The translations under genes and the position numbers were made by a program. From Candidatus Limnocylindria bacterium (GTDB lineage Bacteria; Chloroflexota; Limnocylindria; QHBO01): DNA of 64,000 bases. The notes beneath the pieces were generated by a model, which worked only from the letters and a program-made list of their open reading frames with translations, was not told the DNA's origin and searched no databases. The stretch covers positions 2,027-66,026 of the forward strand of contig DASTTX010000102.1 in the NCBI GenBank assembly GCA_035759945.1, read 5' to 3'. Positions 12,215 to 49,305 of the stretch are shown piece after piece; position 1 is the stretch's first letter, and each line of letters starts with the position of its first letter.

Positions 12215-12430
12215 CTAGCGAAGGCCGGAGACGAGGGTGAATGCGAGGAGCGGAGCAATCAGCATGCCCAGGGCAGCGGCCAGCAGGTACCAGTCGCGCG
12301 CCGCGCGTTCGTCAGCCACGCCACGCTCGAACAGGCCAAGGGTCCACCAGCGCACGGCGGACAGCCCGATGACGTACAAGACCGCGGCAACCGCCACCAC
12401 GCCGATGACGAACGGCCGCACCGCCACGCA
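12215..12430 (-). CDS. Hypothetical small membrane protein, or the frameshifted C-terminal continuation of the upstream membrane protein gene
   Basis: The C-terminal ~70-110 aa of the 272 aa ORF is strongly hydrophobic (VIGVVAVAAVLYVIGLSAVRWW...LLAAALGMLIAPLLAFTLV), whereas its upstream part looks like GC-driven noise. The only start candidates are internal GTG codons. Confidence 0.25.
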   Translation of the reverse strand, partial: CVAVRPFVIGVVAVAAVLYVIGLSAVRWWTLGLFERGVADERAARDWYLLAAALGMLIAPLLAFTLVSGLR

Positions 12431-12549
12431 GTCGCCGAAGGCGAGCGGTCCGCCACCCGGGCACGAGGCCGCGAGCTCGAAGCCGATGACGGTGGCGGCG
12501 ACCGCGAGGACGAGGGCCGACCAGGCGACGTGCGCCAGGAGCGAGCGAG

Positions 12550-13137
12550 TCAGCGGGCGGCGAGCTCCGAGCTGCGCGCGGCGGCCTCGGCGGCCTCGCG
12601 CCGGGTGATGCGACGGAACTCGAAGTAGAGGTAGACGCAGGCCGCGGCGCCGATCCCTGCCGCAATCATGCCGAAGGCCACCGACGTGAGGGTGATGCGG
12701 AGCGGCCAGAAGGACCCGCCGGCGAGATTGAACGCCATGATCGGGATGATCAGGAGCACGGTGAGCAGGTAGTTGAGCATGACGAAGATGCGCACCGCCG
12801 CCCAGCCGAAGCCACGCCGGCCGCGGGCGGCCTGGACCACCAGCGCCAGCACGATGATGGCGGTGAAGGTCCCCATCCCCGCGCCGTTGGCGATGAGGAA
12901 GCCGACGTCCTCGCTGAAGCGCAGGAACGGCAGCTCCACCGTGACGAGGTAGTAGATGTAGTTCGACACGTAGAACAGCACGAAGTACATGAACAGGAAC
13001 AGCGGCACCGCCTTGAGCACCGCCACGAGCCACGTCTCGTGGCCGAACAGGAACCAGCTCATGAAGTCGTCCGACCAGCTGAGCAGGCGCGTGAACCCGC
13101 CGCGCCGCCGATAGACCGGATACGTCGTGGTGCTCAA
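12550..13137 (-). CDS. Polytopic membrane protein, the last gene of the bc-complex operon
   Basis: 195 aa with 4-5 predicted TM helices. Its TTG start overlaps the cytochrome c stop (TTGA). Function unknown. Confidence 0.45.
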   Translation of the reverse strand: MSTTTYPVYRRRGGFTRLLSWSDDFMSWFLFGHETWLVAVLKAVPLFLFMYFVLFYVSNYIYYLVTVELPFLRFSEDVGFLIANGAGMGTFTAIIVLALVVQAARGRRGFGWAAVRIFVMLNYLLTVLLIIPIMAFNLAGGSFWPLRITLTSVAFGMIAAGIGAAACVYLYFEFRRITRREAAEAAARSSELAAR

Positions 13138-13925
13138 TGGTCGCCCTCCAGCAGGAAGGTGATCAGGGCCTGGAGCGCCGACTCGCTCAGGCTGCTCTCG
13201 GGGTGGGCCGGCATGCCGGACGCGCCGTAGTTGCCGGCCGAGTCACGAATCCACTGCTCCAGGAAGGCGCGCGGATCGGCGTCGTAGTCGGTCTCCATCT
13301 GATCGGCGCCGGTCGGGGTGGCGAAGCCGCTGAGGTCGACCAGGCCCGAGCCGATGCCGGTGATGTTGGGTCCGGCCGTGGTTCCCGACAGGTCCTCGGC
13401 ATGGCAGGTGACGCATCCGGCGGACGCGAACACATCGGCACCTGCCTCAACCGTGTTCTCGACCTCCTCCACCGGCTGCTCGCCGGCCTCCGCAGCCCAG
13501 CTTTCGACCAGCGCCACGACCGCGTCGATCTGCTGCTCGTTGAGGGGCCCACCGACCTCCGAGCTCCAGGCCGGCATCGGCGAGTTGACGTTGCCGGACA
13601 CCACCACGCCGCCGTAGCTGACGGCCAGGTGCACGTAGTTCGGATTCACCTTGAGCTTGTCGAAGATGCTGCGGCTGTGGAGGTTCGGCCCGACCACCTG
13701 CGCCCCGGGCTCGCCACCGGTGCCATCGGCGCCGTGGCATCGCGCGCAGCCCACCGAAGCCGGCTCTGCAGGGTTGTCGGAGAAGATGACCTCGCCGAAC
13801 TCGAGCAGCTCGTCCTCCTGCGCGACGGCGACCGATTCACGACGGCTGTCATCGGTCACCCAGTAGAGCATGGTGAAGGCGGCGAGGGCCGTGATCAGCA
13901 CGACGCCGAGCGTCTTGAGTCGCAT
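13134..13925 (-). CDS. Diheme c-type cytochrome subunit of the bc complex
   Basis: N-terminal TM anchor and two CxxCH haem-binding motifs (CARCH and CVTCH). Confidence 0.85.
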   Translation of the reverse strand: MRLKTLGVVLITALAAFTMLYWVTDDSRRESVAVAQEDELLEFGEVIFSDNPAEPASVGCARCHGADGTGGEPGAQVVGPNLHSRSIFDKLKVNPNYVHLAVSYGGVVVSGNVNSPMPAWSSEVGGPLNEQQIDAVVALVESWAAEAGEQPVEEVENTVEAGADVFASAGCVTCHAEDLSGTTAGPNITGIGSGLVDLSGFATPTGADQMETDYDADPRAFLEQWIRDSAGNYGASGMPAHPESSLSESALQALITFLLEGDH

Positions 13926-13928
13926 CGC

Positions 13929-14609
13929 CTAGCCGACGCAGTGCTCGGTGATGTCGCTGGCGGTCCGCTTGTCGAATGTCACCACCGTCGGCGGCGGGCC
14001 GCTGATCACCTGGCGCGTGTCGATGATGTAGACGCCGTTCTCGACGAGCACCTCGAAGCGGTCCATGCCGCGCGGCGCCGGGCCATCCCGCTTCTCGCCG
14101 ATGACCGTGTACTTCGAGCCGTGGCACAGGCACTCGAACCACTCGCTCTTGTCGCACAGCTGCGGCACCTGGCAGCCCAGGTGCGGGCACTTGCGCCACA
14201 GCGCCATGACCGAGCGATCCTCGGGCGGGATGTCCGGGTCGACGTCGGCGCCCGGATCCGGCACCGGCAGGGTCACGTCCGACGTCACCTCGCCATTGGA
14301 GTTGCCGGCCACGCGCGCCTTGGCGGCAGGCACGTTGACGAAGAACAGGTTCGCCTGGTTGTAGACGAACGGCAGCCCGTTCTGCCAATCGGGCGCCAGG
14401 TTATTGATGTCGTCGGCGCTCCCCAGCGTGATCTGCGATCCGAGACCCTCGGTCAGGTTCGGCCACAGGAAGGCGAGTGTGCCGCCCAGGAACTCGAGCG
14501 AGAGGAGGCCGACGCCCACGCCCAGCACGCGGCGCATGAAGCTGCGTCGGGTGATCTCGCCGGTGGGCGGCCCGTGGACCGCACCGTAGGAAGCGTGCTG
14601 CTGTGTCAT
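13929..14609 (-). CDS. Rieske [2Fe-2S] iron-sulfur subunit of the cytochrome bc complex (QcrA/PetC-like)
   Basis: Start MTQQHA (ATG at 14609, ATGA overlap with subunit IV). Tat motif RRSFMRRVLGVGVG. Rieske boxes CPHLGC...CLCHGS. Confidence 0.85.
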   Translation of the reverse strand: MTQQHASYGAVHGPPTGEITRRSFMRRVLGVGVGLLSLEFLGGTLAFLWPNLTEGLGSQITLGSADDINNLAPDWQNGLPFVYNQANLFFVNVPAAKARVAGNSNGEVTSDVTLPVPDPGADVDPDIPPEDRSVMALWRKCPHLGCQVPQLCDKSEWFECLCHGSKYTVIGEKRDGPAPRGMDRFEVLVENGVYIIDTRQVISGPPPTVVTFDKRTASDITEHCVG

Positions 14610-15223
14610 AGGTTGAAGTACAGCCCATCCCACGGCCAGACCCAGTTCCAGCCCGGGCCGCGGAAGAAGGAGCCGATGAAGGTCACGATCAGGCCGCCGA
14701 CCATGATGCACAGGAAGAAGATCCAGATCATCTTCCGGTCACGCACGGCCTTGTAGGGCGTTCGGTCGACGTACGGGATGATGAGCAGGCCGCCGAGATA
14801 CACCGGGATGATCAGCACGCCGGCCACGGTCGGGTTGAAGTAGCTGAGCAGCTCCTGGAGGCCGAGGAAGTACCACGGCGCCTTCGCCACGTGCGGCGTG
14901 ACGGACGGGTTGGCCATCTCCTCCAGCGGCGCGGTGATGAAGACACTCGTCACCACCAGCAGCGCGGTGATGAGCATGGCCATCAGGAACTCGGCGCGCA
15001 GCAGGTGCGGCCAGGTCAGAACCGTCTCGTCGGGGCGCTTGTCGACACGGACCATCGACTCCTGCTTGACGTAGGCCAGGAGGCGGAAGCGCTCGGTTCC
15101 CGGCACGCCGGGCGGTCCGGGAAGCTTGGGTCCGACGCCGGGCGCAACGATCGGCGCGCGCTCGGGCGCCTGGGTCGGGACGTTCTTGTCGGCGGTGGCG
15201 TTCGGTCGCTTCTCGATCGTCAT
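14606..15223 (-). CDS. Cytochrome b6c complex subunit IV (C-terminal half of a split cytochrome b)
   Basis: PEWY-like APWYFLGLQELL motif and 3 TM helices. Lies immediately downstream of the b6-like gene. Confidence 0.8.
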   Translation of the reverse strand: MTIEKRPNATADKNVPTQAPERAPIVAPGVGPKLPGPPGVPGTERFRLLAYVKQESMVRVDKRPDETVLTWPHLLRAEFLMAMLITALLVVTSVFITAPLEEMANPSVTPHVAKAPWYFLGLQELLSYFNPTVAGVLIIPVYLGGLLIIPYVDRTPYKAVRDRKMIWIFFLCIMVGGLIVTFIGSFFRGPGWNWVWPWDGLYFNL

Positions 15224-15238
15224 CGGTCCAGCCTCACC

Positions 15239-15976
15239 TTACACCGGGCCACTGATGCCGCCGTCCTTCCGGATCCGCCAGAAGTGGACGATCATGAAGA
15301 TGGCGGCGATGAGCGGGAAGAAGATCACGTGCGCCACGTAGAAGCGCAGCAGCGTGCCCTGGCCGACCTGGATCCCGCCCAGCATGAAGAAGGCAGACTC
15401 GTTGCTGAGCAGCGGCGCGTAGGTGGCCATCTGGGTGCCGACGGTGATGGCCCAGAACGCGATCTGGTCCCACGGCAGCAGGTAGCCGGTGAAGCTCAGC
15501 GCCAGCGTGAAGAACAGCAGCAGCACGCCGATGACCCAGTTGAACTCCCGCGGCGGCTTGTACGCGCCGTGATAGAAGACGCGGATCATGTGCAGGAAGA
15601 CGGTGAGGACCATGAGGTGCGCGCCCCAGCGGTGCATGTTGCGCACCAGCGAGCCGAACGCGACCGATGCCTCGATGGCCTGGATGTCCTGGTAGGCACG
15701 GCTGATCGACGGCACGTAGAAGAACATCAGGTACAGGCCCGTCACGGTCAGCACCAGGAACAGGAAGAAACTGATCCCGCCCAGGCAGAACGTGTAGGTG
15801 TAGCGCACGGCGTGGCGCTTGACCCGCACCGGGTGCAGGTGCAGGAACACGTTGTTCATGACCGCCAGGGCGCGGGTGCGGCTGGTGGACGGGTACGGCT
15901 GGCGGAACAGGCTGCGCCACGCGGCCGACTCCTTCACCCAGCGCACGACCGGGTTGCCGCCGTTGCCGTTGCTCAT
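15239..15976 (-). CDS. Cytochrome b6 (N-terminal haem-binding half of a split cytochrome b)
   Basis: Four-TM b-type cytochrome N-domain with conserved haem-ligand His residues in helices B and D. The ATG overlaps the stop of the upstream oxidoreductase (ATGA). Confidence 0.85.
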
Positions 15977-17946
15977 CGGTCCACGACCGCGCCGGCCTGC
16001 TGGCCGACCTGTCCGAGCACGTTGTCCTTGTAGCTCTCCAACAGAACCTTCCCGTCAGGCGTGAACCGCTCGAGCTCGAGCCGGTCCATGGTGATGCAGT
16101 TGGTGGGGCAGCGCTCGACGCAGAGGTTGCAGCGGATGCAGCGCTCCTCGTCGATGATCATGGCGATCCCGCGCGGCCACGACTGGAAGAACTCCTGCTC
16201 CGGGTCGTCGCCGCCGACCTGCGCCTTGTCGATCATGTAGATCACGCCCTCGGGGCAGACGTCGGCGCAGAGTCCGCACAGGATACAGCGGGGGCCGTCG
16301 ATGTTGATGTTGTGGTTGCACTGGAGGCAGCGGCTGCCCTCGTCGATGGCGCTGCGCGTGTCGTAGCCGACCTCGACCAGGCTGGTGAAGTCACGCCGCA
16401 GCTCCGGCGGCGCCATCGGGATCTCCTGGCGGCGGGTGGCCTCGTAGAAGCGCGGCATGTCGTGATCGAGGCTCTGGGTGATGGTGGCGCGGTTGATGAC
16501 CGGCAGCTCCTCGAGCTCTTCGCCACGCAGCCCGGCGAGCCAGCGGTCGACGCTGCGCGCTGCCCGCCGCCCGAGGCCGGCGGCCTCGATGATCGTGGCG
16601 GGGCCCGTCACGAAGTCACCCACGGCGAAGATGCCGTCCTGGTTCGTGCCGAAGGTGTCGGCGTTGATGGCGACATTGCCGCGCTTGAACTCGAACTTCA
16701 GGTCGTTCAGCGAGTTGCCCTGCGCATCCTTCGGCGTCGTGCCGTTCAGCGGCTCGGTGCGCCAGGCGGACAGGGAGCCGCCCTCGACCACGGTCCGCGT
16801 ATCGGTCACGCCGACGTGCCGGTTGAGCTTGGCGCCGAACTCCCCGAGGACATTGTTGTCCGATGCCTGGCTGGTGCACGGGATGACCATGTCGCAGGGG
16901 ACGGTGAACTCGCTGCCCGGGATCGGCTCGGCGCTGCGACGGCCGGTCGCGTCCGGCGGCCCGAGGCGGGTGCGCACGAACTTCATGCCGCTGACGTGCC
17001 CGTTCTCGTCGGCGAGGACCTCGACCGGCGAGGCGAAGTACTCGAACTGGACGCCCTCGAAGCGCGTCTCGTGCTGCTCCTCCTCGTCGACCACCATCTC
17101 GTCCGGGCCGCGGCGGTAGAGGATCGTGCTCGTCTTGGCCCCCAGCCGAAGCGCGGTTCGCGAGGAGTCCATGGCGGTGTAGCCGCCGCCGATGACGACG
17201 ACGTGCTCGCCGACCCATTGCGACTGCCCGAGGTTGGCGCGCTTCAGGAAGTCGACGCCGTAGATGACGCCGTCGAGCTCCTCGCCGGGGACGTTCATGG
17301 CGACCGGGTACATGCATCCGGTGGCGACCACGACCGCGTCATGCTTCGCGCGCAGCTGCTCCAGGGTGATGTCGCGACCGATCTCGACGTTATAGTGGAA
17401 CTGCACGCCGTGCTTGGCGACCCAGTTCACGTCCAGCTCGATGACGTCGCGCGGGAGCCGGAAGGCCGGGACGCCGATGAGCGTCGTGCCGCCGCCCGAG
17501 GGCAGCGCCTCGTAGATGTGGACCTCATGGCCCCAGCTGCCGAGCTCCTTGGCGGCCGCCAGGCCGGCGGGGCCGGCACCGATGACGGCCACGCTCCGCC
17601 CGGTGGGCGCCTGCACCACCACGTTGTCGGGCATGTTGTTGCCGTAGTGCCAGTCGACGAGGAAACGCTTCATGGCGCGGATCGCCAGCGGCTTGTCGAT
17701 GTCGGCGCGGCGGCAGGCCTTTTCGCACGGCGCGCTGCACACGTAGCCGCAGATGGCGGCCACCGGGTTCGGGTCGCGGGCGAGGATGTAGCCCTCCTCG
17801 AAGCGCCCTTCGGCGGCCAGCATCAGGTAGCCCCGGCAATTGGTGTTGACCGGGCAGCCTTCCTGGCACTCGATGTTGCACTGAAGCCAGTCGACACCGA
17901 CCTCGGCCGTCTGGAACCTCAGGGGAATCGCGGTATCTGAGATCAC
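15973..17946 (-). CDS. Glutamate-synthase-beta (GltD)-like NAD(P)H:FAD oxidoreductase with N-terminal Fe-S motifs and a C-terminal 2x[4Fe-4S] ferredoxin domain
   Basis: 657 aa. N-terminal Cys clusters ([10 protein letters not shown] and [13 protein letters not shown]). Two Rossmann dinucleotide motifs ([14 protein letters not shown] and [12 protein letters not shown]). C-terminal [12 protein letters not shown] and [12 protein letters not shown]. Confidence 0.8.
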
Positions 17947-18058
17947 TGCGTCGTGGTCGCTCTCCGGGCGGCGTTAGACCATGGGGCAACTAAAGGAGCG
18001 GCGAGACCGATGCTACCCGTTCCGTCTCGCGCCGTGCAAGGCGCGCGTCGTTGGCCGG

Positions 18059-27343: not shown

Positions 27344-28147
27344 TCAGGAGAGCAGCGGCCGCCACGTGCCGAGCGCCAAGCTGACGCCGATCGCGACGAC
27401 GGCGAGGCAGATGGCCGCCGCGATCCAGGCCAGGTCGCGCAGCGTCACCCGCTCGAGGCGTGCCGCCGTCCGGCATTCGGAAGCGCCGAAGCCGCGGGCC
27501 TCCATTGCCAGCGCCATGCGGCTGCCGCGCCGGACGGCGCCGACGAGCAGCGCCATGAGCTGACCGGCGAAGAGTCGAACGACCGCCACGGGCGACCGGC
27601 CGGCATCGACGCCCCGCGCCCGCCGCGCCATGCCGATGGTCTGCCACTCCTCCGCCAGCAGCGGCACGAGCCGCAGGGCGGCGAGCGCGCCGATCGCGAA
27701 GCGCGGCGAGGCATGCAGCTGCTGGACGAGCGAGTCGGCGATCTCGGTGGGCTGGCTCGTCGCCGTGGCGAGGATCCCGGTAGCGGCGATGGCCACCAGC
27801 CGCGCGGCCAGCCCGAGGCCGTCCACCAGCGTCTCGGCGCCGATCCGGACCGGTCCCAACGAGACGACGATCGGACCAGCCTGCTCGGGCGCGAACAGGA
27901 CGTTCGCGACGCCGATCGAGACCGCCGCCAGGCCGACCAGCCACGCGCGCCCGATCAGGCCGGCAGGCGACAGTCCGGAGAAGGGCAAAGCGCACGCCAG
28001 CCCCGCGAGCACGACGAGCGCCGTGACGCCATCCAGCGAGGCGAACAGCACGACCAGCAGCGCGAGCGCGGCCACCAGCTTGGCAACCGGGTTGGCGCGC
28101 GCGAGGGGAGCGCCCGGGTCCGGAACGAGCGGCGTGAGCAGCTGCAT
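27344..28147 (-). CDS. ecfT: ECF transporter transmembrane component EcfT (CbiQ family)
   Basis: 267 aa polytopic membrane protein immediately downstream of the duplicated ECF ATPase. ATGA overlap. Confidence 0.75.
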   Translation of the reverse strand: MQLLTPLVPDPGAPLARANPVAKLVAALALLVVLFASLDGVTALVVLAGLACALPFSGLSPAGLIGRAWLVGLAAVSIGVANVLFAPEQAGPIVVSLGPVRIGAETLVDGLGLAARLVAIAATGILATATSQPTEIADSLVQQLHASPRFAIGALAALRLVPLLAEEWQTIGMARRARGVDAGRSPVAVVRLFAGQLMALLVGAVRRGSRMALAMEARGFGASECRTAARLERVTLRDLAWIAAAICLAVVAIGVSLALGTWRPLLS

Positions 28148-29613
28148 CAGCGCGCGGCCTCGAGCCGCAGCGTCCGGTCGGCGAGGGCATTCACGAAGGC
28201 GCGGTCATGCGTCACGAAGCCGATGCCTCGACCGTCGTCGCGCAGCGCGGCCAGCAGATGCAGCAGCTCACCCCATGTGCGGCGATCCTGGCCAAAGGTC
28301 GGCTCGTCGAGGATGAGGAGCGAGGGCGCCGCGGCGAGTGCCGTTGCCACCGACAACCGGCGCTTCTCGCCACCCGACAGGGTGAAGGGATTCGCCCGCG
28401 CCAGGTGCGTCAGGCGCAGGCGCTCCATCAGCTCGTCGGCGCGGTGCGCGGCTGCATCGGCCCCGATGCCGGCGCGGCGCGGACCGAGCGTGAGCTCGTC
28501 GCGCACCGTGCGCGCCAGGAACTGGTGCTCGGGATCCTGGAACACGGTGCCGACATGGCGAACCAGCTCGGACGCGCGCCAATCGGCGATCGCCTCATGG
28601 CCGTGCCCGGCGGCGAGCGCCTCCGTCGCGAGCACATGCCCGATGCGGGGCCGCAGCAGGCCAGCCAGCATCAGCGCCAGCGTCGACTTGCCGCTCCCGT
28701 TGGGCCCGACGATGGCCAGTGCCTCGCTCGAGCGCAGCTGGAGGTCCGTCGGCGCCACGGCATCGGCGTCCGTACCCGGATAGCGGTAGGTCGCGTGCTC
28801 GGCGATGACCAGTGCCGAGGGGCGGGAGGTGGTGCGACGGGGTGGCGCGGGCGGTGGCTGATCGGGCACCCAGACGCCCGCGTCGGCCAGCTGCGCGCCA
28901 CGCGCCCGGAACACCTCGCCCGGCCGCCCATCGGCGAGCACGCCACCGCCTGCCTCGAGCACCACGACACGGTCCACCAGCGCGACCGATTCGTCGACGC
29001 GGTGCTCGACGAGCAGCATCGTCGCGCCGATGCGCTCGAGGACGCGGGCCAGCACCTCGCGGATCTCGGCCGCGCCCTCGGGGTCGAGGTTCGCGGTCGG
29101 CTCGTCGAGCATGAGCAGGCCGGGCTGCAGTGCGAGCGTCCCGGCCAGCGCGAGCCGTTGCTGCTCGCCACCGGAGAGGGCGTGGGTCGGACGGTCGCGT
29201 CCGTACGGGAAGTCGACCGCGGCCAGCGCCGCGTCGACCCGCGGCCAGATCGCATCGGTCGGGACGCATCGGTTCTCGAGCCCGAAGGCGACGTCGTCAC
29301 CGGCGCGACCCATCACGATCTGCGACTCGGGATCCTGGAAGAGAAGGCCGGTACGGTCTCGCGCCTGCCGGGGCTCGTGACCGTCGACCAGCAACGACCC
29401 CTCGGTCTCTGTCCCGCCACCAGGGTCGATCAGCCCGGCCAGCGCGGTCAGCAGTGTCGACTTGCCGGCTCCCGACGCGCCCAGCAGCAGCACTCGCTCG
29501 CCCGGCTCCACGACCAGGTCGACGCCCCGCAATGCCCACTCTCGGCGGCCGGGGTGCCGCAGGCCCCAGCCGCGTGCCTCGATTCGCGCGGGTGGCGCCG
29601 CCGGGCTTCGCAT
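28147..29613 (-). CDS. ECF transporter ATPase, a tandem EcfA-EcfA' fusion with two ABC domains
   Basis: Two Walker A motifs (GASGAGKSTLL and GPNGSGKSTLAL) and two ABC signature/Walker B sets (LSGGEQQR...LMLDEP and LSGGEKRR...LILDEP). Confidence 0.85.
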   Translation of the reverse strand: MRSPAAPPARIEARGWGLRHPGRREWALRGVDLVVEPGERVLLLGASGAGKSTLLTALAGLIDPGGGTETEGSLLVDGHEPRQARDRTGLLFQDPESQIVMGRAGDDVAFGLENRCVPTDAIWPRVDAALAAVDFPYGRDRPTHALSGGEQQRLALAGTLALQPGLLMLDEPTANLDPEGAAEIREVLARVLERIGATMLLVEHRVDESVALVDRVVVLEAGGGVLADGRPGEVFRARGAQLADAGVWVPDQPPPAPPRRTTSRPSALVIAEHATYRYPGTDADAVAPTDLQLRSSEALAIVGPNGSGKSTLALMLAGLLRPRIGHVLATEALAAGHGHEAIADWRASELVRHVGTVFQDPEHQFLARTVRDELTLGPRRAGIGADAAAHRADELMERLRLTHLARANPFTLSGGEKRRLSVATALAAAPSLLILDEPTFGQDRRTWGELLHLLAALRDDGRGIGFVTHDRAFVNALADRTLRLEAAR

Positions 29614-30879: not shown

Positions 30880-30959
30880 CGGTCCTCCATTCGTGCCGGA
30901 GACAACGAACGGCACGCCGTTCCTCTTCTCCGTTGATCGAGGGGCGCGCCGTGGCAGCA

Positions 30960-31060
30960 GCTGTTTCGACTTCCTTCGCCGGCATGACCCGGATCAGGTT
31001 CGAGGGTCTGCGAATGCATCGGCATCCGCACTCTCAGCGCTGGTCGCGCTCCCCTGTCGC
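30960..31060 (-). ncRNA. TPP (THI-box) riboswitch
   Basis: Minus-strand RNA reads GGGGAGCGCGACCAGCGCUGAGAGUGCGGAUGCCGAUGCAUUCGCAGACCCUCGAACCUGAUCCGGGUCAUGCCGGCGAAGGAAG. It contains the conserved CUGAGA and ACCUGAUCYGGRUMAUGCCRGCGNAGGRA THI-box elements, about 90 nt upstream of the TPK start. Confidence 0.85.
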
Positions 31061-31106
31061 TTGGTGGGTTGTGCGTCCAGCCTAGCACCCACCCTAGAAT
31101 CGGTCG

Positions 31107-42334: not shown

Positions 42335-43237
42335 TCAGGCCGTCTTGCGCCGGCGCTGGCGCGGGGCCTTGGCCTCCGCCTCGTCCTCGGCATCGGCGCC
42401 GGCCGCGACCTTCGCCTTCGCCCGTGACTTCGGCGCATCGGCCTTGGCTGCCTTCCGCTCGCTGCGCGCCGCCGCGACCGAGGCCTCGAGGGCGGCCATC
42501 AGATCGGTGATGTTCGTCGGCTCGGTGCGCGCGGCCGGCTCCGGCTTCTCGCCGGCCACCTTGCGCTCGATGACAGCCATCAGTGCCTGGCGGTAGTCGT
42601 CCTGGTAGTCATCGGCGCTGAAGTCGCCGGTCATGCTGGCCACCAGCTGCTCGGCCATCTTCTTCTCCGAGGCCTTGATCTCGATCTCGTCCTCGGGAAG
42701 GTTGAGCTCGTCCATGGCCCGCACCTCGTCCGGCCAGTGCAGCGTGGTGAGCAGCATGGTCTTGCTGAACGGGTTGAGCGCCGCGAGCTGCTCGCGATCC
42801 TTGAGCACGATCTTGCAGATGGCGCTCTTGTTCTGCTCGGCCAGCACGGACTTCAGCAGGTAGAAGGCCTTCGCGCCGATCTGCTCAGGCTCCAGGTAGT
42901 ACGCCTGCTTCACGAACTGGGTGCCCGCCGAGTCGCGCGAGGCGGCGATGAACATCTCGATCTCGATGGCGCGCATCGTCTTCAGCGGCACGGAGTCGAT
43001 GTCCTCCTCCGTGACGACGACGTACTTGCCCTTGCTCCACTCGTAGCCGCGGACCGTCTCCGAGCGCGGGATGATCTCGTCGTGGTAGGGGCAGTACACC
43101 TTCATCTGGATCCGGTTCAGGCAGCTGGCATGGAGCAGGTTGAAGCCGATGCCTCCCTGCTCGGTCGCCAGGTACAGCTTGACCGGGATGGTCACCAGGC
43201 CGAACTGGATGGCCCCCCGCCACATGGATCGCGCCAT
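42335..43237 (-). CDS. ku: Ku protein (bacterial NHEJ DNA-end-binding protein)
   Basis: Start MARSMWRGAIQFGLVTIPVKLY (ATG at 43237), the canonical Ku beta-barrel start, with a C-terminal Lys/Ala-rich tail. Confidence 0.85.
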   Translation of the reverse strand: MARSMWRGAIQFGLVTIPVKLYLATEQGGIGFNLLHASCLNRIQMKVYCPYHDEIIPRSETVRGYEWSKGKYVVVTEEDIDSVPLKTMRAIEIEMFIAASRDSAGTQFVKQAYYLEPEQIGAKAFYLLKSVLAEQNKSAICKIVLKDREQLAALNPFSKTMLLTTLHWPDEVRAMDELNLPEDEIEIKASEKKMAEQLVASMTGDFSADDYQDDYRQALMAVIERKVAGEKPEPAARTEPTNITDLMAALEASVAAARSERKAAKADAPKSRAKAKVAAGADAEDEAEAKAPRQRRRKTA

Positions 43238-43403
43238 AGGACGTCTCGTGCTCCTGTTCACCCGCGCGCGAATCGCCGTGCCCTGCGACCCATCGAAGGC
43301 GGGCGGTGATGGTACAACGCTGGCGCAAATCCACCGGTACCCCATGGGTACCATGCGGATGGGCCATAGACCGATGCGGTCGCGCTGGGCAACACTCAGC
43401 CCG

Positions 43404-43796
43404 ATGACTGACGCCACCGCTGCCGCACGCGCCTACGTCCTCGAGGACGACCCCGATATCGCCGCCCTCGAAGCCGATCTCCTGCGCGAGATGGGCTTCA
43501 GCGTGGTGACCTGCACCCGGATCGTCGAGCTGGGGGACCTCATGGACCTCGCCCTGCCCCACCTCCTGGTGGTCGACGTGATGCTTCCCGACGGTGACGG
43601 CGGCGACATCACCGAGCTGCTGCGCACCGCGTGGCCGGGGATCCCGGCCGTCTTCGTGTCGGCCGCGAACCGCGAGCGCCTCGCGGCACTCGAGCCGGTC
43701 GGACCCGTGGTTGCCAAGCCGTTCGATCTGGACGCGTTCAGGGAGGCCGTGATCCTGGCGCTCGACGGCGCCCGGGAGCTGCGCACCGCCTCGTGA
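43404..43796 (+). CDS. Single-domain response regulator (CheY-like receiver)
   Basis: YVLEDDPD...LLVVDVMLPDGDG...AKPF receiver motifs. No output domain. Confidence 0.7.
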   Translation: MTDATAAARAYVLEDDPDIAALEADLLREMGFSVVTCTRIVELGDLMDLALPHLLVVDVMLPDGDGGDITELLRTAWPGIPAVFVSAANRERLAALEPVGPVVAKPFDLDAFREAVILALDGARELRTAS

Positions 43797-45738: not shown

Positions 45739-47466
45739 CTACGCCTCGGCCTCACCGGTGGCGGCGATCCGCTCCGTCTCGCCCCGGGCGCCGGTGGCGA
45801 GGAGGATGCGCCCGGTGGCCTGCTCGCCGAACAGCGCCTCCACGGTGTCGAGGGTGTCGATCTCGGCGGGGGTCTTGTCGTCGCGGATCCGCACGATCCG
45901 CGGGAAGCGCATCGCGAAGCCCGATCTGTGCCGGGACGAGCGCATGATCCGATCGAAGGCGATCTCGACGACGACCTCCGGGACGACCGTCCGATAGCGT
46001 CCGAAGTCCTGAAGCGTGATGCCCTTGAAGCGCTCGGTCATCTCCGCGATCTCGGCATCGGTCAGCCCGGTGTAGGCCTTGCCGATGGTGAGCAGGCGCG
46101 CGTCGGGCGCATCGGTCTCGCGCACCGCGAACGTGTAGTCCGACAGCACGCCACGGCGCTTGCCGTGGCCCCATTCGACACCGACAACCACGCAGTCAAG
46201 CGTCGCGAGCGCCTTCTTGAGCTTCAGCCACCCCAGGCCGCGCCGGCCGGGCTGATAGGTCGAGCGGGGGTCCTTGACCATCAGGCCCTCGTTCCGGCGC
46301 TCGCGCGCGTCGTCGAAGTGCCGGTCGACCTCCTGCGCCGACCGCGCCGTGTCGAGGTGCGACAGCAGCATCCGCTCCGCCGTTCGCTCCGGCAGGCCGA
46401 GTGCCTCGAGCGCGGCGCGGCGCTCGCGCAGCGGAACCTCGAGCAGGTCGACGCCGCGATGGTGCAGCAGATCGAAGGCGACCAGCACGACCGGCACCTC
46501 CGCCAGCAGCGCCTTCGACGGCCGCACCCGGCCGAGCCGCGTCTGCAGCGACGCGAAGTCGAGGACCGATCCCTCCCGCCACGGCACGAGCTCACCGTCG
46601 ATCACCAGCGGCGCCTCGTCGCGCAGCGTGCCGACCGCCTCGGCGATCTCCGGGAAGGAGCGGGTGACGTCGTTCAGGTCGCGGCTGAACAGCTGCGCGC
46701 TTCCCTTGGCACCGACGTGCAGCTGCGCCCGGATGCCGTCGTACTTGTCCTCGATCCACGCCTCGTGGCCGACCCGCTTCATGACCTCGGCCGCGTCCGC
46801 CACGGGCGATGCGAGCATGAAGCGGATCGGTCGCCCGACGTGAAGCCGGGCGTCCGCCAGGCTGCCGGAGCGTGCGAGCCGTGCGGTCTCGCCGATCTCG
46901 CCGGTCAGCATGTGCGCGCGCCGCACGTCGTCCAGCGGCGCGTCGAAGGCCGCCGCGACCGCCTCCTCGAGCAATCCCTCGCGCAGCCCGATGCGCGTCT
47001 CGCGCGAGGCGACGCGTCCGATGAAGCGCGCCTCCTCCGCATCGGCACGGCGGAACAGGTCGGTCATGCGCGCCACTCGGTCGTCGGCCGATGAGGCCGA
47101 TGCGATCGCGGCGAAGGCGTCCGCCACGTCGCCCACCCTGAGCCCGTCCGGCGAGCGCGCCGTCAACAGCTCGGCGGCCGCGTCGCCGAAGTCCGAATGG
47201 CGCAGGTAGGCAGCCCGGATGGCGTCGGCGTCGGCACCGCTTGCGGCCGCCAGCGCGGCGCCCTGCTGGACCCAACCGATGCCGAGCTTGGCCGTCGGAT
47301 CGATCAGCGGCCGGCCGGCGAAGAAGACCGTCGCCGCGGCCAGGTCAGTCTCCGGCAGGTCGCGAAGGTATGCCGCGAGCAGGTCGCGCTTCGCGTTCTT
47401 GCTGCGCGTGGCGCCGACCGCCGCGGCCGTGCGGGCGAGGTCGGCGAACGGGCTGGAGGCGGCCAT
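45739..47466 (-). CDS. ATP-dependent DNA ligase (LigB/LigC-type, with an N-terminal DNA-binding domain)
   Basis: Motif I EDKYDGIRAQLHV with the catalytic Lys. 575 aa with DBD, adenylation and OB domains. Confidence 0.85.
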   Translation of the reverse strand: MAASSPFADLARTAAAVGATRSKNAKRDLLAAYLRDLPETDLAAATVFFAGRPLIDPTAKLGIGWVQQGAALAAASGADADAIRAAYLRHSDFGDAAAELLTARSPDGLRVGDVADAFAAIASASSADDRVARMTDLFRRADAEEARFIGRVASRETRIGLREGLLEEAVAAAFDAPLDDVRRAHMLTGEIGETARLARSGSLADARLHVGRPIRFMLASPVADAAEVMKRVGHEAWIEDKYDGIRAQLHVGAKGSAQLFSRDLNDVTRSFPEIAEAVGTLRDEAPLVIDGELVPWREGSVLDFASLQTRLGRVRPSKALLAEVPVVLVAFDLLHHRGVDLLEVPLRERRAALEALGLPERTAERMLLSHLDTARSAQEVDRHFDDARERRNEGLMVKDPRSTYQPGRRGLGWLKLKKALATLDCVVVGVEWGHGKRRGVLSDYTFAVRETDAPDARLLTIGKAYTGLTDAEIAEMTERFKGITLQDFGRYRTVVPEVVVEIAFDRIMRSSRHRSGFAMRFPRIVRIRDDKTPAEIDTLDTVEALFGEQATGRILLATGARGETERIAATGEAEA

Positions 47467-49228: not shown

Positions 49229-49305
49229 GCCCCCATCGTCTAGAGGCCTAGGACGCCACCCTTTCAAGGTGGAGATCACCGGTTCGAATCCGGTTGGGGG
49301 CACCA
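49229..49305 (+). tRNA. tRNA-Glu (anticodon UUC), CCA encoded
   Basis: Cloverleaf GCCCCCA / TCGTCTAGAGGCCTAGGACG / CCACC-CTTTCAA-GGTGG / T-arm CCGGTTCGAATCCGG / TGGGGGC-A-CCA. Anticodon loop CUUUCAA. Confidence 0.85.

Follow-up and report, generated by a model that had tools for sequence, protein, structure and literature searches.

A flavoprotein gene adjoins cytochrome b in the Rieske/cytochrome b operons of Limnocylindria

The Rieske/cytochrome b (bc) gene array of Candidatus Limnocylindria bacterium (Chloroflexota) opens with the gene of a 657-aa iron-sulfur (Fe-S) flavoprotein. The array lies in a 64,000-nt stretch of DNA (assembly GCA_035759945.1, contig DASTTX010000102.1, positions 2,027-66,026 of the forward strand), which in its whole length is referred to below as the window. 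Of 39 Limnocylindria-type loci that include DNA upstream of cytochrome b, we found the flavoprotein gene adjoining the cytochrome b gene on that side in 37; flavoprotein identity among them ranges from 52% to 99%. We consider it probable from this gene order that the flavoprotein is a cytoplasmic subunit docked on the complex, with its Fe-S clusters and FAD wiring NAD(P)(H) to hemes bH/ci. An earlier reading of the stretch (hereafter, the original prediction) had proposed that flavoprotein and bc complex form a functional module. That proposal is supported by the conserved adjacency; the argument it drew from overlapping start and stop codons does not stand, as such overlaps are common here.

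To place the window array among its relatives, one genome per GTDB species was surveyed with a cytochrome b alignment as the query (Limnocylindria, a Dormibacteraeota-labelled metagenome-assembled genome (MAG) and Scalindua). The query matched at least 599 stretches, and the locus counts given here refer to the best 80 loci, which were examined by tblastn with the window proteins and by inspection of open reading frames (ORFs) upstream of cytochrome b. A full-length flavoprotein gene lies directly upstream of cytochrome b in 35 Limnocylindria-type loci, where cytochrome b is at least 69% identical to that of the window. Two more loci of this type have a flavoprotein gene in the same position that is cut by the contig end, and one has no DNA upstream of cytochrome b. 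The only Limnocylindria-type exceptions are L037 and L045, the former being a second cytochrome b copy in a MAG (MFD09730.bin.2.23) that also holds L046. In 23 loci of Acidimicrobiia and Ilumatobacter, only a ferredoxin of ~137 aa with a 2x[4Fe-4S] domain is encoded upstream of cytochrome b (L047, L049-L051, L053, L055, L062, L064, L066, L067, L069, L071, L073, L074, L076-L079, L082-L084, L086 and L088). Two loci, from Scalindua and Brocadia sapporoensis, have the order Rieske-cytochrome b-flavoprotein, and the remaining 17 have neither flavoprotein nor ferredoxin (Ktedonobacteria including Dictyobacter alpinus, Dehalococcoidia, a Terriglobia MAG, a Nitrospinaceae MAG and others). The original prediction had named as its refutation that related bc operons uniformly lack the flavoprotein gene and that the gene lies beside gltB. 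We see the reverse: 37 of 39 loci carry it, and no glutamate synthase large subunit is encoded nearby.

Among loci L015, L067, L069 and L070 are MAG records named Steroidobacteraceae, Bifidobacterium or Hyphomicrobiales, for which binning or labelling errors are likely. L015 is clearly Limnocylindria-like (88-90% identity), L067 and L069 are Acidimicrobiia-like, and L070 resembles a Dehalococcoidia/Anaerolineaceae-labelled group. The flavoprotein gene is split across frames in L019, L046 and L048, which indicates assembly errors or pseudogenes.

Limnocylindria operons fall into two clades. In clade A, which includes the window, the order is PBP, flavoprotein, cytochrome b, subunit IV, Rieske protein, diheme cytochrome c, a 195-aa protein, a 112-aa protein and aldolase. 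In clade B (Limnocylindrales and a Dormibacteraeota-labelled MAG), a 611-aa flavoprotein is followed by cytochrome b, subunit IV, Rieske protein, a cytochrome c-cupredoxin fusion and a Kelch protein. Flavoproteins of the two clades are ~52% identical, and the 4-nt overlap with the cytochrome b gene is kept in both (L001, L003, L005). The pairing also occurs in other gene orders: in addition to Scalindua and Brocadia, the metagenome lineage L089 encodes NrfD, two multiheme cytochromes c, flavoprotein, cytochrome b, a subunit IV-like protein and Rieske protein, while another one, L090, encodes Rieske protein, cytochrome b, a subunit IV-like protein, a multiheme cytochrome c and flavoprotein. Unlinked paralogues of the flavoprotein were found at L004, L006 and L007, the last of which adjoins a xanthine-dehydrogenase-like enzyme. 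Rosetta-stone fusions of flavoprotein and cytochrome b were sought among the longer representatives of the family, and none was found; the N-terminal extensions of such relatives carry response-regulator, DHODH, POR-gamma, rubredoxin-like, 2Fe-2S and second-flavoprotein domains.

Aligned with residues ~510-623 of the flavoprotein, the Acidimicrobiia ferredoxin is 31-36% identical and has the same long insert between its two cluster motifs; it lacks the RCLxC motif (see below) and the flavin module. Since 23 Acidimicrobiia loci keep only this homologous ferredoxin upstream of cytochrome b, the ferredoxin domain is likely to be the docking part of the flavoprotein. It would dock on the cytoplasmic (N) face of cytochrome b6/subunit IV, and some four Fe-S clusters together with FAD would form an electrical connection between NAD(P)(H) and hemes bH/ci. 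The Rieske protein and cytochrome c are exported; no signal peptide or transmembrane segment was found in the flavoprotein, which is therefore expected to be cytoplasmic. For Kuenenia, co-migration of the subunits of the corresponding complex has been reported (PMC12954380, which cites de Almeida 2016; PMC5600118). Also in favour of an association are the 4-nt overlap kept in both clades, a conserved promoter-like element before the flavoprotein gene (see below), the recurrence of the pairing in other gene orders, and the cytochrome b and subunit IV motifs, HxHP histidines included, that the window shares with Scalindua.

The genome has a GC content of 70%, and flavoprotein homologues at 83-92% identity come from soil metagenomes, those with names being Candidatus Limnocylindria or Chloroflexota MAGs. 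One locus, L010 (DASVDT010000117.1, Candidatus Limnocylindria bacterium SMAG_U2040), shares 94.2% nucleotide identity with the window over 16 kb, and all nine proteins compared between the two are 92-100% identical. The description of the DNA in the original prediction as a high-GC genome of Gram-positive type was thus mistaken: given this identity to a Limnocylindria MAG, it belongs to Chloroflexota, class Limnocylindria.

The domain structure foreseen for the 657-aa protein, with two Rossmann folds, N-terminal Cys clusters and a C-terminal 2x[4Fe-4S] domain, was borne out by Pfam and motif searches. Pfam recognises Fer4_20 (residues 21-103), Pyr_redox_2/Pyr_redox and two 4Fe-4S motifs (residues 547-622); the Rossmann motifs are GAGPAG at residue 123 (FAD) and GGGYTA at 253 (NAD(P)H), and the protein contains 22 cysteines. 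An invariant YRR motif follows the second Rossmann strand and, by inference from glutathione-reductase-type folds, suggests NADPH as the cofactor. The RCLxC motif, which opens the Fer4_20 domain in GltD/NfnB, is absent from the N-terminal part of the window flavoprotein and instead stands just before the ferredoxin domain. This placement looks like a permutation of cluster ligands. In total, the window flavoprotein is likely to hold four Fe-S clusters.

The best PDB sequence matches of the flavoprotein are NfnA/NfnABC (9n5u, 9bov), StnC (8oh5), NfnB (4ylf, 5jca) and GltD, with FwdF as the best match of its C-terminal domain. An AlphaFold2 (AF2) model (pLDDT 81, pTM 0.83) was aligned by Foldseek with 9bov_A, 8oh5_C and 9n5u_A over ~670 columns, with NfnB (5jca_L, 4ylf_B) at a TM-score of 0.79 and with GltD at 0.77; 6s6s_E was also matched. 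An insert modelled with low confidence (residues 369-415) appears to be specific to clade A, because clade-A proteins have 657 aa and those of clade B 611 aa. All NCBIfam models of GltD, NfnB and AegA type score the protein below their cut-offs. We rejected its identification as GltD, since its scores of 203 (TIGR01317, cut-off 448) and 250 (TIGR01318, cut-off 483) fall short and there is no gltB among the annotated neighbours. NfnB was rejected as well: the fold matches, but the cluster holds no NfnA-like gene and the protein has an extra C-terminal ferredoxin domain.

Cytochrome b is of the four-helix b6 type. Its heme histidines H115, H129, H216 and H231 align exactly with His86/100/187/202 of chloroplast b6, the bis-His spacings are 14 and 15 residues as in b6, and Cys64 (FCLGG, the CxGG motif for covalent heme ci/cn) aligns with b6 Cys35; the N-terminal motif is WRSLFR...FLHLHP...RHA. 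Subunit IV, which has a proline-rich N-terminal extension of ~70 residues, carries the Qo motif APWY, and by this motif the pair is assigned to the 'APWY clade', or cytochrome b subfamily G. According to Kao and Hunte, the clade comprises delta-Proteobacteria, Chloroflexi, Nitrospirales, Planctomycetes, deep-branching Actinobacteria, Symbiobacterium and Thermaerobacter, and none of its members had been characterised (PMC4122944). The motif KAPWYFLGLQE is present in every retrieved locus with a recovered subunit IV gene. In common with Scalindua, the window proteins have WRSxFR...FLHLHP...RHA...YT[FW]C[LM]GG in cytochrome b and RYRxLAYVK...TWP[HY]L...KAPWYFLGLQE in subunit IV. The HLHP histidines H46 and H48 are likewise conserved with Scalindua, and the HxHP motif occurs throughout the APWY clade, including complexes without a flavoprotein. 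In an AlphaFold 3 model of the Kuenenia complex, the HxHP histidine is a proposed ligand of an extra inter-dimer heme b (PMC12954380); by a numbering offset (204 minus a 14-residue insert) it maps to H46 of the window protein.

Cytochrome b passes the NCBIfam equivalog NF040969 (ExtP of a selenite/tellurite reduction operon) with 297.6 bits at a cut-off of 290, and subunit IV matches ExtQ; only the ExtP match exceeds its model's cut-off. We rejected this identity, because the cluster has no rhodanese, porin, selenoprotein or multiheme Ext gene. The likeness to the Geobacter ext (Cbc6) cluster with its ExtO/ExtP/ExtQ is limited to cytochrome b (ExtP) and subunit IV (ExtQ), and that cluster has no flavoprotein (PMC5877670), so that the ExtP label would be a mis-annotation here. 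Automatic annotation is likely to name the flavoprotein 'glutamate synthase small subunit' and cytochrome b 'ExtP'; neither label is correct in this context.

The Rieske protein has a twin-arginine translocation (Tat) motif, TRRSFMRR, the boxes CPHLGC and CLCHGSKY, and the S-Y signature that, as a rule, marks high-potential Rieske proteins (PMC4122944). Its best PDB matches are 9rk3 (E = 8e-11) and 9rk4 (3.5e-10), the next best being at 1e-7. The PDB table names no organism, and the annotation style ('Similar to...') together with the recent paper indicates that the two are the Kuenenia Rieske proteins of PMC12954380. Farther along the array, the 195-aa membrane protein gave no Pfam or NCBIfam match and has homologues only among Limnocylindria relatives. 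None of the codons ATG, GTG and TTG stands close to the beginning of the ORF of 112 aa. A CTG shares nucleotides with the TGA stop of the preceding gene (CTGA) in the window and in six of nine relatives, which suggests a non-canonical CTG start or termination-reinitiation.

Six ORFs of the array are co-oriented on the minus strand between 17946 and 12550, and their GC content at third codon positions (0.87-0.98) shows the coding pattern expected at 70% GC. ORFs, Pfam/NCBIfam matches and motifs confirm the order flavoprotein, cytochrome b6, subunit IV, Tat-Rieske protein, diheme cytochrome c and membrane protein that had been read from the letters. The accompanying statement that every junction is an ATGA or TTGA overlap went too far. 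Overlaps of 4 nt are present at three of the five junctions (ATGA between flavoprotein and cytochrome b and between subunit IV and Rieske protein, TTGA between cytochrome c and the 195-aa membrane protein); the other two are gaps, of 15 nt with a Shine-Dalgarno-like GGTGAGG between cytochrome b and subunit IV, and of 3 nt between Rieske protein and cytochrome c. Across the window, such overlaps occur at 8 of ~44 same-strand junctions, four of them in the bc array (one with a small seventh ORF) and four elsewhere. Because they are this common, a start/stop overlap says little by itself, and we rejected it as evidence of coupling. The array extends beyond 12550 with the 112-aa membrane ORF and, 10 nt further, a class-II aldolase-like gene.

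Alignment of the upstream regions of relatives revealed a promoter-like element ~65-90 nt upstream of the flavoprotein start that is common to clade A and consists of TTGACA or TTGCAC, 18 nt and TAGCAT. The -35 hexamer is TTGACA in most clade-A relatives, and the -10 region TAGCATCG is nearly invariant. A generic promoter/terminator scan flagged no promoter, and every terminator-like match that it returned lay inside coding sequence.

The direction of electron flow is not settled by sequence, and we lean towards NAD(P)H input ahead of quinol-driven NAD(P)+ reduction. A net input of NAD(P)H at the N side of complex III is accordingly proposed only tentatively, at somewhat less than even confidence. 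In this aerobic lineage, electrons would run from NAD(P)H through FAD, the Fe-S clusters and hemes bH/ci to menaquinone at the Qi site, and normal quinol oxidation at Qo would feed the Rieske protein, diheme cytochrome c and then cupredoxin or oxidase. The complex would in this way offer a built-in, non-pumping entry port for NAD(P)H (probably NADPH) to complex III, which may be likened to FNR/ferredoxin feeding heme ci in chloroplast b6f or to a dehydrogenase that has a diheme cytochrome b as its anchor. The link between NAD(P)(H) and the hemes is probably reversible. Electron transfer from NAD(P)H (~-320 mV) to menaquinone (~-74 mV) is downhill, and the GltD and DPD modules are NAD(P)H-oxidising input modules. 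We prefer NAD(P)H input on these grounds: it is downhill without gating if the Qi site with heme ci works, heme ci is kept, and the related modules serve for input. By a count of charges, a bulk flux from quinol to NAD(P)+ with recycling of NADH through complex I comes to ~14 charges per 2 electrons; it is disfavoured, since this exceeds the free energy of NADH-to-O2 electron transfer at a normal proton-motive force.

A cupredoxin of plastocyanin/azurin type is encoded elsewhere in the window. As the cytochrome c of the clade-B operon is fused to a cupredoxin, it is a candidate electron acceptor.

Several points weigh against a docked subunit that takes in NAD(P)H. Gene order is the sole ground on which binding of the flavoprotein is proposed. 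Among the survey loci, no cytochrome b or subunit IV motif sets apart the complexes linked to a flavoprotein or ferredoxin: HxHP, RYRxLAxVK and the S-Y signature of the Rieske protein either run through the whole clade or occur in unlinked complexes as well. His55 (RHA) is found in all linked complexes but L053 and L088 (Ser) and is variable in several unlinked ones, with L045, L061 and L085 breaking the rule. The closest paralogue from outside the class, P0123, does not stand beside cytochrome b, and other family members stand beside unrelated partners; the flavoprotein is thus a promiscuous module, given that its paralogues pair with other partners or are unlinked. As to direction, an S-Y Rieske protein with presumed menaquinone fits the argument of Hauser et al. 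for the opposite flow (PMC12954380), and it would be unusual for a heterotroph to drain NADPH specifically into respiration.

That opposite flow, an anammox-style quinol bifurcation, is possible though doubtful in our view. Menaquinol at Qo would pass one electron to the high-potential Rieske protein, diheme cytochrome c and oxidase and the other, through the very low-potential b hemes, Fe-S clusters and FAD, to NAD(P)+, so that NAD(P)H would be made without proton-motive force. For the homologous complexes of Kuenenia, with Rieske potentials measured at +303 and +335 mV, this model is the preferred one (PMC12954380). The window Rieske protein has the same S-Y signature, and its best PDB matches are taken as the Kuenenia proteins from their annotation style. 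As in anammox bacteria, the APWY motif lacks the Qo glutamate. Yet both S-Y and APWY are clade-wide and occur in complexes of Ktedonobacteria and Dehalococcoidia that have neither flavoprotein nor ferredoxin, so that these features are not adaptations to NAD(P)+ reduction. The cofactor suggested by YRR, NADPH, is an anabolic one that Nfn enzymes physiologically produce. For a bifurcating route of this kind, an aerobic heterotroph would have little obvious need. By our estimate, bifurcation is borderline feasible thermodynamically with an acceptor at +300 mV. With a working Qi site, however, electrons on bH/ci would prefer menaquinone by ~250 mV, and a short-circuit from NAD(P)H to quinone would have to be gated; nor does bifurcation by such a complex have an experimental precedent.

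The flavoprotein might also be a soluble, independent oxidoreductase of NAD(P)H:ferredoxin type that is merely co-transcribed with the bc genes. Its lack of a membrane anchor would suit this reading, as would the tight packing of genes in the window, where four of the eight overlaps lie outside the bc array and the array itself runs into an aldolase-like gene, and the occurrence of paralogues alone or with other partners. We nevertheless judge it unlikely: 37 of 39 loci keep adjacency and overlap across ~50% flavoprotein divergence, the pairing with Rieske/cytochrome b genes arises independently in four or more flavoprotein clades, Acidimicrobiia have a version with ferredoxin alone at this place, and co-migration was reported in Kuenenia (PMC12954380). 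A reverse, confurcating operation seems very improbable. Here the high-potential side (cytochrome c or cupredoxin via the Rieske protein) and NAD(P)H via the b hemes would each give one electron and jointly reduce menaquinone at Qo. Kao and Hunte deem APWY characteristic of reverse-working complexes, judging from the p-cresol cluster of Geobacter metallireducens (PMC4122944), but the idea rests on that single gene cluster with no biochemistry. In addition, the diheme cytochrome c or cytochrome c-cupredoxin partners and the aerobic lifestyle point to forward flow, and no high-potential donor enzyme is encoded nearby in the window.

The history of the linkage was approached with a neighbour-joining tree of the flavoproteins (300 bootstraps). 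Limnocylindria flavoproteins form a clade (100%), the sister of which is the unlinked P0123 (98%), and the anammox flavoproteins form a separate clade (100%); the two groups are not sisters. A single shared origin of Limnocylindria and anammox flavoproteins is not supported, as their exclusive clade received 0% bootstrap. Cytochrome b of the window is 60-68% identical to that of Ktedonobacteria, Dehalococcoidia and Acidimicrobiia, compared to 54-57% for anammox bacteria (Scalindua). Since both the flavoprotein tree and the cytochrome b identities disagree with a kinship to anammox bacteria, the flavoprotein appears to have joined APWY-type complexes more than once or to have detached from them repeatedly.

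A flavoprotein-linked Rieske/cytochrome b complex is of a kind already reported, both for anammox bacteria and in comparative genomics of subfamily G. Dibrova et al. are said to have noted as early as 2013 that subfamily G co-occurs with NAD(P)-binding Fe-S oxidoreductases. In 2017, the same group described the short cytochromes b of subfamily G as occurring 'in many other cases' together with oxidoreductases that bind NAD(P) and are rich in cysteine (Dibrova et al., PMC5600118), and complexes of the subfamily with such oxidoreductases are highly expressed in Kuenenia (PMC5600118). With this subfamily, which is patchily distributed over groups such as Chloroflexi, Planctomycetes and deep-branching Actinobacteria, the window shares APWY, the short cytochrome b with subunit IV, and CxGG. 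The arrangement had been called unusual, which overstates the case: it is the rule in Limnocylindria, and the co-occurrence is already in PMC5600118. The background given in the original prediction, that flavoprotein-bearing complexes have been discussed mainly for anammox planctomycetes, agrees with PMC12954380.

The anammox complexes (Kuenenia Kuste4569-4574 and Kustd1480-1485; Scalindua/Brocadia loci L002, L008, L054 and L059) have the same split cytochrome b with CxGG and HxHP, the same KAPWYFLGLQE subunit IV and a Rieske protein with serine in the signature position. Their flavoproteins, of ~570-660 aa, have the same domain order, and those of Scalindua and Brocadia are 36-40% identical to the window protein over the full length. 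Hauser et al. placed four Fe-S clusters in Kuste4570 and Kustd1483 from the templates 9bp5 and 5t5i (PMC12954380), and the window flavoprotein shares with the anammox proteins its best structural templates, 9bov/9bp5 and FwdF (5t5i). The systems differ in gene order, with the flavoprotein first in the window and after cytochrome b in anammox bacteria, and in the acceptor, which is a diheme cytochrome c (in clade B a cytochrome c-cupredoxin fusion) as opposed to hexa-/octaheme cytochromes and an HAO-like protein. Unlike anammox bacteria, Limnocylindria are aerobic.

Other likenesses are partial. NfnB, GltD and NfnABC/StnABC of Bfu type share with the window flavoprotein the fold of the FAD/NAD(P)H module, the cofactor motifs and two [4Fe-4S] sites, and in the Bfu-type chains the ferredoxin domain that follows matches as well; yet the window cluster has none of the partners of these systems, be it NfnA, GltB or a formate-dehydrogenase-like protein. 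Chloroplast and cyanobacterial b6f has bound FNR, and ferredoxin feeds its N-side heme ci (cited in PMC5600118). It thus combines the same b6-type cytochrome and heme ci with an associated NADP-linked flavoprotein, but FNR belongs to an unrelated fold that lacks an Fe-S wire, its gene lies outside the pet operon, and the Qo motif of b6f is PEWY, not APWY.

Limnocylindria are not mentioned in those parts of the accounts of the APWY clade/subfamily G that were available to us, nor do these parts describe the ferredoxin-only bc form of Acidimicrobiia; the literature on Limnocylindria that we found does not discuss the bc complex. The flavoprotein linkage as a rule of Limnocylindria, its simple acceptors of aerobic type and the ferredoxin-only version of Acidimicrobiia appear not to have been described in the papers available to us. 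The function of flavoprotein-bearing Rieske/cytochrome b complexes has so far been argued almost wholly from anammox bacteria, which are slow-growing anaerobes, while here the standard complex-III operon of an aerobic and very abundant Chloroflexota class encodes such a complex. Because its partners are simple (diheme cytochrome c or a cytochrome c-cupredoxin fusion), an anammox-specific explanation through nitrite reduction by multiheme proteins falls away. The ferredoxin-only version of Acidimicrobiia, found also in cultured Ilumatobacter, is simpler and possibly more tractable for the study of exchange between complex III and NAD(P)(H)/ferredoxin.

A broader proposal, which we regard as rather unlikely, would make the Limnocylindria complex a quinol-bifurcating NAD(P)+ reductase and would endow APWY complexes generally with a cytoplasmic plug-in Fe-S port. 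Were it true, an abundant soil and freshwater lineage would gain NAD(P)H from menaquinol with the pull of an oxygen-linked cytochrome c or cupredoxin, and quinone-based bifurcation to low-potential acceptors would be a widespread respiratory mode and not an anammox peculiarity. The port would hold ferredoxin only in Acidimicrobiia, and ferredoxin with flavoprotein in Limnocylindria and anammox bacteria.

Table 1. Coordinates of the bc gene array, its elements and other features of the window
Feature	Position	Strand	Basis or remarks
Fe-S flavoprotein, 657 aa	15973..17946	minus	GTG start; Pfam, NCBIfam, PDB matches, AF2/Foldseek
RCLxC motif (RCLQC), flavoprotein residues 539-543	16318-16332	minus	invariant across family
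Low-confidence insert (~45 residues), flavoprotein residues 369-415	16702-16842	minus	AF2 model
Cytochrome b6-type four-helix cytochrome b, 245 aa	15239..15976	minus	Cytochrome_B, E = 5e-45; ATG overlaps flavoprotein stop
Subunit IV, 205 aa	14606..15223	minus	Cytochrom_B_C; Qo motif APWY
Tat-exported Rieske [2Fe-2S] protein, 226 aa	13929..14609	minus	length from ATG overlapping subunit IV stop; Pfam/NCBIfam, motifs
Membrane-anchored diheme cytochrome c, 263 aa	13134..13925	minus	two cytochrome c domains; CARCH, CVTCH
Membrane protein, 195 aa, ~5 transmembrane segments	12550..13137	minus	TTG start; ORF and hydrophobicity
ORF, 112 aa, 3 transmembrane segments	12215..12553	minus	coding-type GC at third codon positions; 46-100% identity in clade-A relatives
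Promoter-like element TTGCAC-18 nt-TAGCAT	18010..18039	minus	alignment of relatives' upstream regions
Shine-Dalgarno-like GGAGAG	17965..17960	minus	upstream of flavoprotein gene
Cupredoxin (plastocyanin/azurin-type)	2407-2859	plus	
ccmC, ccmB, ccmA (cytochrome c maturation)	95-2261	minus	
Second Rieske-domain protein, 284 aa	4655-5509	plus	after cupredoxin and GAF protein
Thiamine pyrophosphate (TPP) riboswitch	30954-31065	minus	Rfam RF00059, 63 bits; upstream of minus-strand block
ABC ATPase	28147-29613		downstream of TPP riboswitch
CbiQ-type component	27344-28147		downstream of TPP riboswitch
Ku protein	42335-43417	minus	
ATP-dependent DNA ligase	45739-47466	minus	~2.3 kb from Ku
tRNA	49229-49302		

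The remaining features of the window, including the genes for cytochrome c maturation and a second Rieske-domain protein, are listed in Table 1. Downstream of the TPP riboswitch lie genes for an ABC ATPase and a CbiQ-type component, and their block suggests an ECF-type thiamine-related transporter. Ku and the ATP-dependent DNA ligase would form a non-homologous end-joining pair.

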